IMG/VR virus record: IMGVR_UViG_2737471845_000005
Source of the DNA: a virus
Lineage: Duplodnaviria; Heunggongvirae; Uroviricota; Caudoviricetes
DNA length: 30,396 bases
Strand: one strand, 5' to 3'
This document shows positions 7,614-8,225 of the stretch, in pieces. Position 1 is the first letter of the stretch. Each line of letters opens with the position of its first letter. The translations under genes and the position numbers were made by a program. The notes under the pieces are model-generated. The model worked only from the letters and a program-made list of their open reading frames with translations, was not told the origin of the DNA and did not search any database.

Positions 7614-8225
7614 ATGACAACTCAAATTTCTGTTGAAACTCTCTCCCCGATCACCCATAACCAGATTCCTGTTATTACCACCGAACTTTTGGCGCAGCTT
7701 TACGGCACTGAGCCGGTGCGCATTCGCCAGAATCATCATGAGAACAAAGTACGCTTCGTTGAAGGGAAACACTTTTTCAAAGTTGTTGGTAATGGCCTTA
7801 AAGAATTGCGGGTAGCTTTAAACTACTCACAAAATTTGCGGGTTACTTTAAGTAACTCACAAAATTTGCAACCATCTTTAAGAGGGTTACAAATTTCCCC
7901 GAAAGCCCGCTCCCTCATCCTCTGGACAGAACGCGGAGCAGCCCGTCATGCCAAAATGCTCGAAACCGATCAGGCGTGGGATGTGTTCGAAAAGCTGGAA
8001 GACTGCTATTTCAGACAAAAGGATCCGTCAGCGCCAGCTTCATGCCAGAAAAGTTACGACACGCGAGTTCTCTGTTATCAGCGAGGCGGTGTCACTGTTT
8101 CCACAATTCAGTTGCGGGATGATGATATTGTTATTTCCCTTGAGTCATGGCTGGAACTGGCGAGAGCCAATGGTTGGTTTGTTGTTCGCAGAGATAAACT
8201 GGTGGAAAGGCTGATGCAGCTTTAA
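7614..8225 (+). CDS. ORF6N-domain (antirepressor-like) protein with an internal repeat insertion
   Basis: '...KVRFVEGKHFFKV...SLILWTERGAARHAKMLETDQAWDVFEKLEDCYFR' matches the ORF6N/KilA-N-type domain as recalled; GAGGG ribosome-binding site before the ATG; first gene after the late promoter. Confidence 0.65.
   Translation: MTTQISVETLSPITHNQIPVITTELLAQLYGTEPVRIRQNHHENKVRFVEGKHFFKVVGNGLKELRVALNYSQNLRVTLSNSQNLQPSLRGLQISPKARSLILWTERGAARHAKMLETDQAWDVFEKLEDCYFRQKDPSAPASCQKSYDTRVLCYQRGGVTVSTIQLRDDDIVISLESWLELARANGWFVVRRDKLVERLMQL
7806..7895 (+). repeat. Tandem 30-bp repeats (two good copies plus a degenerate third) inside the ORF6N gene
   Basis: 'ttgcgggtagctttaaactactcacaaaat' / 'ttgcgggttactttaagtaactcacaaaat' / 'ttgcaaccatctttaagagggttacaaatt', encoding LRVALNYSQN / LRVTLSNSQN / LQPSLRGLQI. 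Confidence 0.7.

Follow-up and report, generated by a model that had tools for sequence, protein, structure and literature searches.

C4 antisense RNA represses ant in phages P1 and P7, and the anti-immunity region of N15 has the order processed RNA-icd-antA/B. In the isrK-orf45-anrP-isrJ region of Gifsy-1, IsrK activates translation of AnrP and an RNA of ~80 nt is processed from the leader, as set out in a study on the RNA control of anrP translation and on AntQ toxicity (Hershko-Shalev et al., 2016; PMC4825925). Inactivation of a repressor or prophage induction by the protein itself is experimental for AnrP (PMC4825925) and for Ant of phage Phi24B, which speeds activation of the late promoter on induction (PMC3064807). 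Here we analyse a related antirepressor-like gene with an ORF6N domain at positions 7614-8225 of a 30,396-nt stretch of Caudoviricetes DNA (IMG/VR record IMGVR_UViG_2737471845_000005; the whole stretch is referred to below as the window). Its coding sequence holds three tandem 30-bp units, each unit is a palindrome, and a palindrome is found at this place across the sampled ORF6N family. This is the main feature of the locus, and it was absent from an earlier note on the sequence of the window.

Judging by gene order and RNA family matches, the locus is a portable, RNA-controlled antirepressor module of the P1 immI or Gifsy-1 isrK-orf45-anrP type. Gifsy-1 (PMC4825925) has the same order of a Q-like gene, a promoter, an IsrK RNA of ~77 nt with its terminator and a processed RNA of ~80 nt, and continues alike with an antirepressor-like gene, a terminator and lysis genes. 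As in immI of P1 and P7 (c4-icd-ant) and the anti-immunity region of N15, a C4-type RNA with a1/b1-like targets upstream of it precedes the antirepressor gene. In the Ant/AntA proteins of Shiga toxin (Stx) phages (VT2-Sakai, the 933W group, 2851, and Phi24B), ORF6N residues 1-134 are ~97%-99% identical to ours at the best-matching places, all three units included. In Stx phages, ant is part of the nin region, on the upstream side of Q, and encodes a C-terminal P22_AR_C domain, whereas the gene in the window follows Q and has an unrelated C-terminal domain. An intragenic palindrome or repeat is not mentioned in the accessible part of the Gifsy-1 study (PMC4825925). A Salmonella homologue that is 61% identical over its full length and has isrK and C4 matches upstream (locus L084) carries one unit, compared with three in the window.

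A palindrome within the ORF6N coding sequence

The encoded protein matches Pfam ORF6N (PF10543) over residues 12-115 (E 2.6e-18). The score of 66.5 bits against a gathering cut-off of 27.8, over profile positions 3-86 of 86, places it in the family, and PHROG 2379 ("anti-repressor") covers the entire protein (E 2.5e-92). The C-terminal domain, approximately residues 147-203, matches PHROG 22471/340 and has no assigned function. ORF6N is predicted to bind DNA, and its fold matches, all of them weak, are to winged helices of the excisionase/MerR type; the protein had no sequence match among solved structures and no significant Foldseek match. In an AlphaFold2 model built with 45 homologues, the domain is otherwise confidently folded, with a mean predicted local distance difference test (pLDDT) score of 83.8 for the protein, but pLDDT falls to 56-64 over approximately residues 71-90, within the repeats (residues 65-94). 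Because the ORF6N match comprises 104 residues against 84 profile positions, about two of the repeat units are extra and one is native.

At 7806-7869, Tandem Repeats Finder reported 2.1 copies with a period of 30 bp (85% matches, score 93), together with a second, overlapping row at 7825-7882, and a repeat search paired 7801-7830 with 7831-7860 at 77% identity. The division into three in-frame units A, B, and C (Table 1) was made by eye. Each unit contains an imperfect dyad of 27 nt whose centre falls on the second base of the fifth codon, with arms TTGCGGGTAGC-TTTAA-ACTACTCACAA in unit A, TTGCGGGTTAC-TTTAA-GTAACTCACAA in unit B, and TTGCAACCATC-TTTAA-GAGGGTTACAA in unit C. Inverted repeats were detected in unit B (19-nt arms, 84% complementary) and unit C (17-nt arms, 88% complementary), and 0 chance matches to the unit B pattern are expected in the window. 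Unit C matches unit B at only ~20 of 30 bases and its arm sequence is unlike that of A and B, yet the symmetry is retained; it is a separate unit type, not a decayed copy of B. Only the outer AAATTTGC and the central CTTTAAG are common to all three units.

The number of units varies among close relatives. In 84 related loci, the segment from GKHFF to LILWTERG has 38, 40, 42, 48, 58, or 68 aa, corresponding to one, two, three, or four units. The closest proteins (203, 195, 193, and 185 aa) differ in the repeat segment only and contain A-B-C, A-B, A-C or B-C, or A alone, while the order A-B-B-C, its two B units identical, occurs in antA of phage 2851 and at six further loci. Alleles with one to four units have flanks that are 94%-99% identical, as is characteristic of a variable-number tandem repeat, and the length differences between the alleles all comprise whole codons and are mostly multiples of 30 bp, with no on/off switching of the reading frame seen. 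The units share the junction CACAAAATTTGC, and because the B-B duplications are exact, slipped-strand events or unequal recombination between these shared junctions probably generated them. Expansions with quite different units occurred independently in many lineages among cluster representatives at 50% identity. Further arm types in relatives include CGACTAG/CGAGTCG, GAGTGTC/GACACTT, and AACCTCT/AGAGGTT, and one unit A homologue differs by synonymous changes only (CGG to AGA, TCA to TCT), by which its dyad becomes perfect. The earlier note had proposed an ORF6N domain with tandem 30-bp repeats at about 7806-7895, encoding LRVALNYSQN-type decapeptides between its recognizable halves and able to expand or contract, and all of this agrees with our results. 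It had also described the gene as interrupted by these repeats, to be confirmed as an insertion by alignment; that description fits the extra units, whereas one unit is native to every family member.

The palindrome extends far beyond these close relatives. We sampled 80 loci, one genome per species, which yielded 65 non-redundant linkers from Enterobacterales, Acinetobacter, Chromatiaceae, Roseospira, Paraburkholderia, and others. A strong palindrome is present in the linker of 59 of these 65 homologues, the remaining ~9% having lost it, with arms of 8-16 nt (mostly 11-16 nt) around a centre of 1-7 nt, and several lineages have two or three dyads per gene. The stems are unrelated between lineages, as illustrated by CCGAGCAGAGGGTCT-TAA-AGACCCTCTGCTCGG in Roseospira. 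When codons were resampled synonymously (60 times each), no resample reached the observed palindrome score in 42 of the 65 linkers, whereas an upstream control segment of the same length beat all 60 resamples in one case out of 65; codon-order shuffles gave mean z values of -2.3 for the linker and -0.5 for the control. In an ungapped alignment of the 65 centred dyads, 84.9% of the cells are paired compared with 56% after shuffling (0 of 500 shuffles as high) and 29%-41% in slid registers. Changes on both sides account for 226 cells where 86 are expected, and covariation was detected in 12 of 12 dyad pairs. Mixta and Acinetobacter share one dyad, TTTGCGACTGACT...AGTCAGTYGCAAAT, but translate it in different frames (to LRLTNSQLQI and FATDLKSVANF, respectively), and 12 of 66 base-centred dyads lie in a minority reading frame. 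Unit C is almost devoid of synonymous variation, with a third-position diversity of 0.03 compared with 0.42 before and 0.16 after the unit (24 haplotypes).

A distant, canonical subfamily from gut viruses has the dyad as well. A consensus-like ORF6N peptide used as probe retrieved 80 loci, whose products, where sampled, belong to the core of the ORF6N family (Pfam E 1e-33 to 6e-38). Dyads encode their signature motif LRSQIVTS, for instance TTGAGGTCACAAATTGTGACCTCAA, and symmetric variants include TTGAGGTGCCAAATTGGCACCTCAA, which encodes LRCQIGTS, and GTGAAGTCGCAAAATGCGACTTCAC, which encodes VKSQNATS; the dyad appears to explain the look of the ORF6N signature peptide. In 23 of 27 non-redundant cases the dyad beats all 60 resamples, compared with 0 of 27 controls, and the symmetry of 14 of the 27 dyads is complete but for one central base. 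Dyad duplications occur in this subfamily too (L328 and L351). These comparisons show that the 30-bp units are tandem copies of a cis element of ORF6N genes, a dyad of 25-33 bp at a fixed coding position, within the stretch for the poorly ordered middle of the domain, that is kept at the nucleotide level while its arms turn over on both sides.

Synonymous resampling, covariation, the differing frames, and the constancy of synonymous sites in unit C together indicate that the signal is in the nucleotides and not in the peptide. The proposal of the earlier note that the repeats might act at the DNA level thereby gains statistical support from resampling and covariation. It is quite improbable that the repeats serve the protein, with LRVxLxxSQN decapeptides lengthening an ORF6N helix or wing and tuning the binding of DNA or a partner, and the palindrome arising incidentally because residues on opposite strands of a beta-hairpin-like peptide prefer certain partners. 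In favour of this, every unit keeps the reading frame, R, S, T, N, and Q are frequent in the peptides, as they often are in DNA-contacting segments, and residues i and 10-i would be neighbours in a peptide hairpin. Yet synonymous resampling destroys the palindrome, one dyad is read in different frames to give unrelated peptides, the synonymous sites of unit C are frozen, and the AlphaFold2 confidence for the segment is low.

The dyad could alternatively be a functionless quasipalindrome in a permissive loop, its arms kept alike by template switching and its hairpin-prone DNA promoting slippage. Correction of quasipalindromes by template switching is established for E. coli and T4, the mismatch spectrum of the dyads looks random, the encoded peptide is hypervariable and poorly ordered, expansions arose independently in many lineages with exact B-B duplications among them, and some linkers have lost the palindrome altogether. 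Nevertheless, we regard this explanation as unlikely: arm lengths are similar in two subfamilies with little shared sequence in different phyla, unit C is almost free of synonymous variation between diverse flanks, the centre, which template switching does not copy, is symmetric, and control segments of the same genes have no comparable self-maintaining palindrome. Nor does the dyad behave as a dispersed mobile element. Searching IMG/VR with the unit B core gave 120 matches, 66 of them in an ORF6N context; the other 54 comprise several ORF6N genes missed by the motif test (at contig ends or on the other strand) and unrelated sequences with only the short pattern in common. As the core lies either in an ORF6N context or in such chance likenesses, behaviour resembling that of Rickettsia palindromic elements (RPE), miniature inverted-repeat transposable elements (MITE), or repetitive extragenic palindromes (REP) was seen neither in this search nor in the prophage of the window.

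A possible duplex operator or folded strand

We tentatively favour the reading that the dyad is recognized as duplex DNA by a dimer, probably of the ORF6N protein itself, and thus constitutes an intragenic operator duplicated by slippage. According to this model, an ORF6N dimer would bind the symmetric dyad within its own gene, where the site, as a roadblock or an anchor for looping, may keep a potentially dangerous antirepressor in check, adding operator control to the upstream control by the IsrK and C4 RNAs. Slipped-strand or unequal recombination would give rise to tandem units, the extra units would be added binding sites spaced by approximately three helical turns, and the encoded peptide would be largely a passenger tolerated in a flexible loop.

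A competing explanation is a folded single strand, either a stem-loop in the ant mRNA (a pause site, a substrate for RNase III or other processing, a stabilizer, or a protein-bound element) or a hairpin or cruciform in the DNA. Pairing alone would then matter, the stem could drift freely, and tandem units would add hairpins. Each of the 12 stem pairs shows compensatory changes although the inner stem is not conserved in sequence, which is in line with this explanation, as is the folding of the repeat region, which is better than that of shuffled sequences (-31.2 kcal/mol, z -3.1). The conserved stem base with an A/T-rich centre of 3-5 nt resembles protein-recognized hairpins, and the operon is already under the control of RNA structures (IsrK, C4). 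Two observations nevertheless led us to prefer duplex DNA and to consider a folded strand rather unlikely. First, an excess of G·U pairs is missing: among 88 mismatches in the dyads, 20 are G·T and 16 are A·C, and there is no strand preference in folding energy, the plus and minus strands folding about equally (27 vs. 36). Second, the symmetry reaches positions ±1 and ±2 of the centre, which cannot pair in a hairpin, with 58% and 72% symmetric in the proteobacterial set (37% and 45% expected) and 79% and 95% in the canonical set (50% expected), where about half of the dyads are perfect up to one central base. Symmetry through the centre, as expected of a dyad operator, is thus found in both subfamilies. 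In addition, the absence of a U tract after the stems shows that they are not intrinsic terminators, and the repeat region has no match to an Rfam family.

Several points weigh against an operator bound by the ORF6N dimer. The inner 7-bp arms of units A, B, and C are unlike each other, yet each is symmetric; a single sequence-specific dimer does not account for three such units in one array, which look rather like intrastrand pairing. Identical units are also found in alleles that differ in the putative recognition helix (residues 31-50). A second copy of a gene's own dyad near the promoter was found at only 4 of 74 loci, with no convincing excess in further comparisons, and in this prophage there is none in the window or in 12 kb of the early region of an identical prophage. 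The pairing figures come from dyad windows centred by palindrome detection, which favours register 0, and the symmetry statistics were obtained on sequences that are related to one another and constrained by coding. The generic palindrome threshold (11-nt arms, at most two mismatches) is itself at chance level, with ~23 palindromes expected in 30 kb. The evidence therefore pulls in different directions, and a reader specific for structure would reconcile most of it.

The operator reading finds some further support in stand-alone dyads of the family type, which a few loci (L343, L287, and L328) carry a short distance upstream of the ORF6N start codon. In L343, from a gut viral contig, the dyad CTTGAAGTCACAATTTGTTACTTCAAG (466-494) lies ~35 nt upstream of the start, directly after a gene for an XRE-type helix-turn-helix protein, and resembles the intragenic GTGAAGTCGCAAAATGCGACTTCAC (730-754) ~265 bp downstream.

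A more far-reaching version of the operator reading, which we consider a long shot, is that the LRSQxxTS or LRVxLxxSQ signature is the translation of the protein's own binding site, the site and the head that reads it being one. Each symmetric change of the site would then also alter a variable segment of the DNA-binding domain, providing a built-in source of new, mutually insulated protein-site specificities among co-resident prophage ORF6N modules, and arrays such as A-B-C could collect sites for several paralogues.

Other candidate functions were discarded. The unit junction contains a heptamer, A_AAT_TTG, that resembles the X XXY YYZ motif of programmed -1 frameshifting and is followed by a hairpin, but only ~0-1 nt of spacer separates the two, a stop ends the -1 frame after six codons (GCG GGT TAC TTT AAG TAA), and such a heptamer is lacking in the second outer-stem class (AACAG...CTGTT) and in the canonical family. 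An intragenic intrinsic terminator is ruled out, as no T run lies behind any unit. Origin iterons of the lambda type were rejected: the gene is of the ORF6N antirepressor type, and the likely iterons of the prophage lie elsewhere. In a search for duplexes with the C4 and IsrK RNAs, the repeat region was not among the best partners, although the output was dominated by self-complementary stems and is uninformative.

The RNA-controlled module and its surroundings

The region between the Q-like gene and the ORF6N gene consists of two RNA elements (Table 1). The earlier note had taken these for pR'/tR'-like elements, an assignment that gives way to the Rfam matches to the IsrK small RNA and the C4 antisense RNA (73.7 and 66.7 bits, respectively). 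The promoter-like site ends ~7 nt 5' of the start of the IsrK model, the IsrK intrinsic terminator is at 7431-7447 with a T run (terminator scan), and a match to the c4-a1b1 target model (7363-7415) overlaps IsrK with 45.5 bits, just below the cut-off of 46.7. The C4 match ends 53 nt before the start codon of the ORF6N gene on the same strand, in a position that equals that of the processed orf45'/STnc1160 species of Gifsy-1. The locus thus has what defines such modules, a C4-type RNA upstream and a terminated IsrK leader with its own promoter-like site. The Q-like gene is labelled DUF1133 in the annotation of NZ_CP065607. Downstream of the ORF6N gene, the terminator is at the position of the Gifsy-1 IsrJ terminator (by the layout in PMC4825925), no Rfam match was found for isrJ, and an open reading frame (ORF) of no known family, a holin gene, and a lysozyme gene follow.

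Table 1. Positions of the repeat units, the ORF6N gene, and the surrounding control elements in the window
Feature	Position	Strand	Description	Evidence
Unit A	7806..7835	+	LRVALNYSQN; dyad TTGCGGGTAGCTTTAAACTACTCACAA at 7806-7832, centre 7819	Sequence, repeat searches, present in relatives
Unit B	7836..7865	+	LRVTLSNSQN; dyad TTGCGGGTTACTTTAAGTAACTCACAA at 7836-7862, centre 7849	
Unit C	7866..7895	+	LQPSLRGLQI; dyad TTGCAACCATCTTTAAGAGGGTTACAA at 7866-7892, centre 7879	
ORF6N-domain antirepressor-like gene (AnrP/Ant type)	7614..8225	+	203 aa	Pfam ORF6N; PHROG 2379, 22471, 340
Q-like antiterminator gene (DUF1133, AntQ-like)	6789..7343	+		Pfam DUF1133 E 4.6e-108; weak Phage_antitermQ E 2e-6
Promoter-like site, candidate PisrK equivalent	7340..7369	+	TTGACT-18-TATATT	Consensus scan, 10/12 matches
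IsrK-type small RNA	7376..7452	+	Full length	Rfam isrK 73.7 bits (cut-off 50)
C4-type antisense RNA	7478..7561	+	Full length	Rfam C4 66.7 bits (cut-off 45)
Intrinsic terminator 3' of the ORF6N gene	8318..8343	+	10-pair stem and T-rich tail (terminator scan)	

The block 7353-8017, which includes the IsrK-C4 leader, is ~97%-99% identical at its best-matching places to the Stx-phage ant locus. The earlier note had placed the ORF6N gene first after the late promoter, in the slot occupied by stx. That it is the first gene after the Q-like gene was confirmed, as in Gifsy-1 (PMC4825925); its status as cargo of the stx slot was not, because the near-identical block in Stx phages lies in the nin region, which argues for a portable module. 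The order isrK-C4-ORF6N also occurs in Stx phages, Salmonella, and Mixta, and RNAs of the IsrK and C4 types precede ORF6N genes in Photorhabdus and Pectobacterium as well. At three loci, antB of phage 2851 (L001, 5206-5289) and loci from Photorhabdus and Pectobacterium (L087, 1073-1156; L109, 1079-1163), the leader RNA scores with the Rfam model sRNA-Xcc1 instead of C4, and the two models appear to describe one kind of leader RNA. Sequence related to 7330-8460 is present in 1619 of 5426 complete E. coli genomes, at up to seven places per genome, and only 116 of the 1619 have the full arrangement, so that many E. coli strains hold several paralogous ORF6N modules simultaneously.

Two short ORFs overlap the leader. 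One of 18 codons (MIGVVGGELLRNHQRASL, 7561-7617) starts where the C4-like RNA finishes and overlaps the ant start codon through its terminal ATGA, a likeness to the P1/N15 layout that makes it a possible coupling ORF similar to icd or orf45. The other has 33 codons and runs from an ATG at 7482 to a stop at 7583, its start matching the position of the first orf45 AUG of Gifsy-1.

Further elements were observed elsewhere in the prophage. Between the ant terminator and the holin gene, the ORF at 8459-9028 (189 aa) has no Pfam match, and a strong dyad, AAGCAAGGATG-TATAC-CATCCTTGCTC, is located near its 3' end at 8955-8981. At the left end of the window (73-148) are a 14-bp tandem repeat (AAACGAGCGGTTAC) and the dyad AGGTAACGCTG-C-CAGCGTTACAC, and three more dyads of the form TTGTAACGC-N-GCGTTACAA lie in or next to an O-like replication gene of the same prophage (L164 1853-2275, NZ_CP065607); together, these are probably origin iterons inside the initiator gene. 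In the nin-like region, the Rfam model of the sok antitoxin RNA is matched over its full length at 5018-5193 (118 bits), and a Hok/Gef gene is annotated just downstream of it in the identical prophage, identifying the region by family match and annotation as a hok/sok toxin-antitoxin pair.

Novelty and comparison with known systems

The regulatory context of the locus is already known from Gifsy-1 isrK/anrP, P1 immI, and Stx-phage ant, and in-frame variation of repeat copy number is ordinary. The new part appears to be the presence, in the middle of the ORF6N coding sequence, of a dyad that is conserved and covaries. No description of an intragenic palindrome in ORF6N genes was found in the searchable literature, in which "ORF6N" combined with "inverted repeat" returned none. 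Few N-terminal modules are as common as ORF6N in phage "antirepressor" (Bro-network) proteins, and the dyad constitutes a concrete candidate DNA target for it, as well as a case of a nucleic acid signal hidden by protein alignment. In enterohaemorrhagic E. coli, the units in Stx-phage ant genes number three or four, and because Ant affects the speed of the late promoter that expresses the toxin (PMC3064807), the unit number could mark, and possibly modify, induction behaviour.

Cis-acting sites within coding sequence have precedents. The iterons of the lambda O gene, lac O2, and gal OI are all dyad-symmetric sites inside genes, some of them in tandem, and the lambda iterons lie in the linker-coding part of O and are bound by O itself. 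Compared with lambda O, ORF6N is no replication initiator, has no adjacent AT-rich unwinding region, and shows far faster arm turnover. Within the Bro network, the Roi protein of HK022 reportedly binds a site inside roi (Clerget and Boccard, 1996), although the roi genes of VT2-Sakai and phage 2851 have no comparable dyad. The baculovirus hr elements are tandem imperfect palindromes of ~30 bp with an A/T-rich central hexamer, bound by a dimer of IE1 (PMC2834656). As these are intergenic enhancers or origins of a eukaryotic virus, the likeness is an analogy only. Rickettsia palindromic elements are likewise in-frame palindromic DNA tolerated in surface loops of proteins, but they are mobile and occur in many unrelated genes, whereas one copy of the ORF6N dyad is native to every member of its family.

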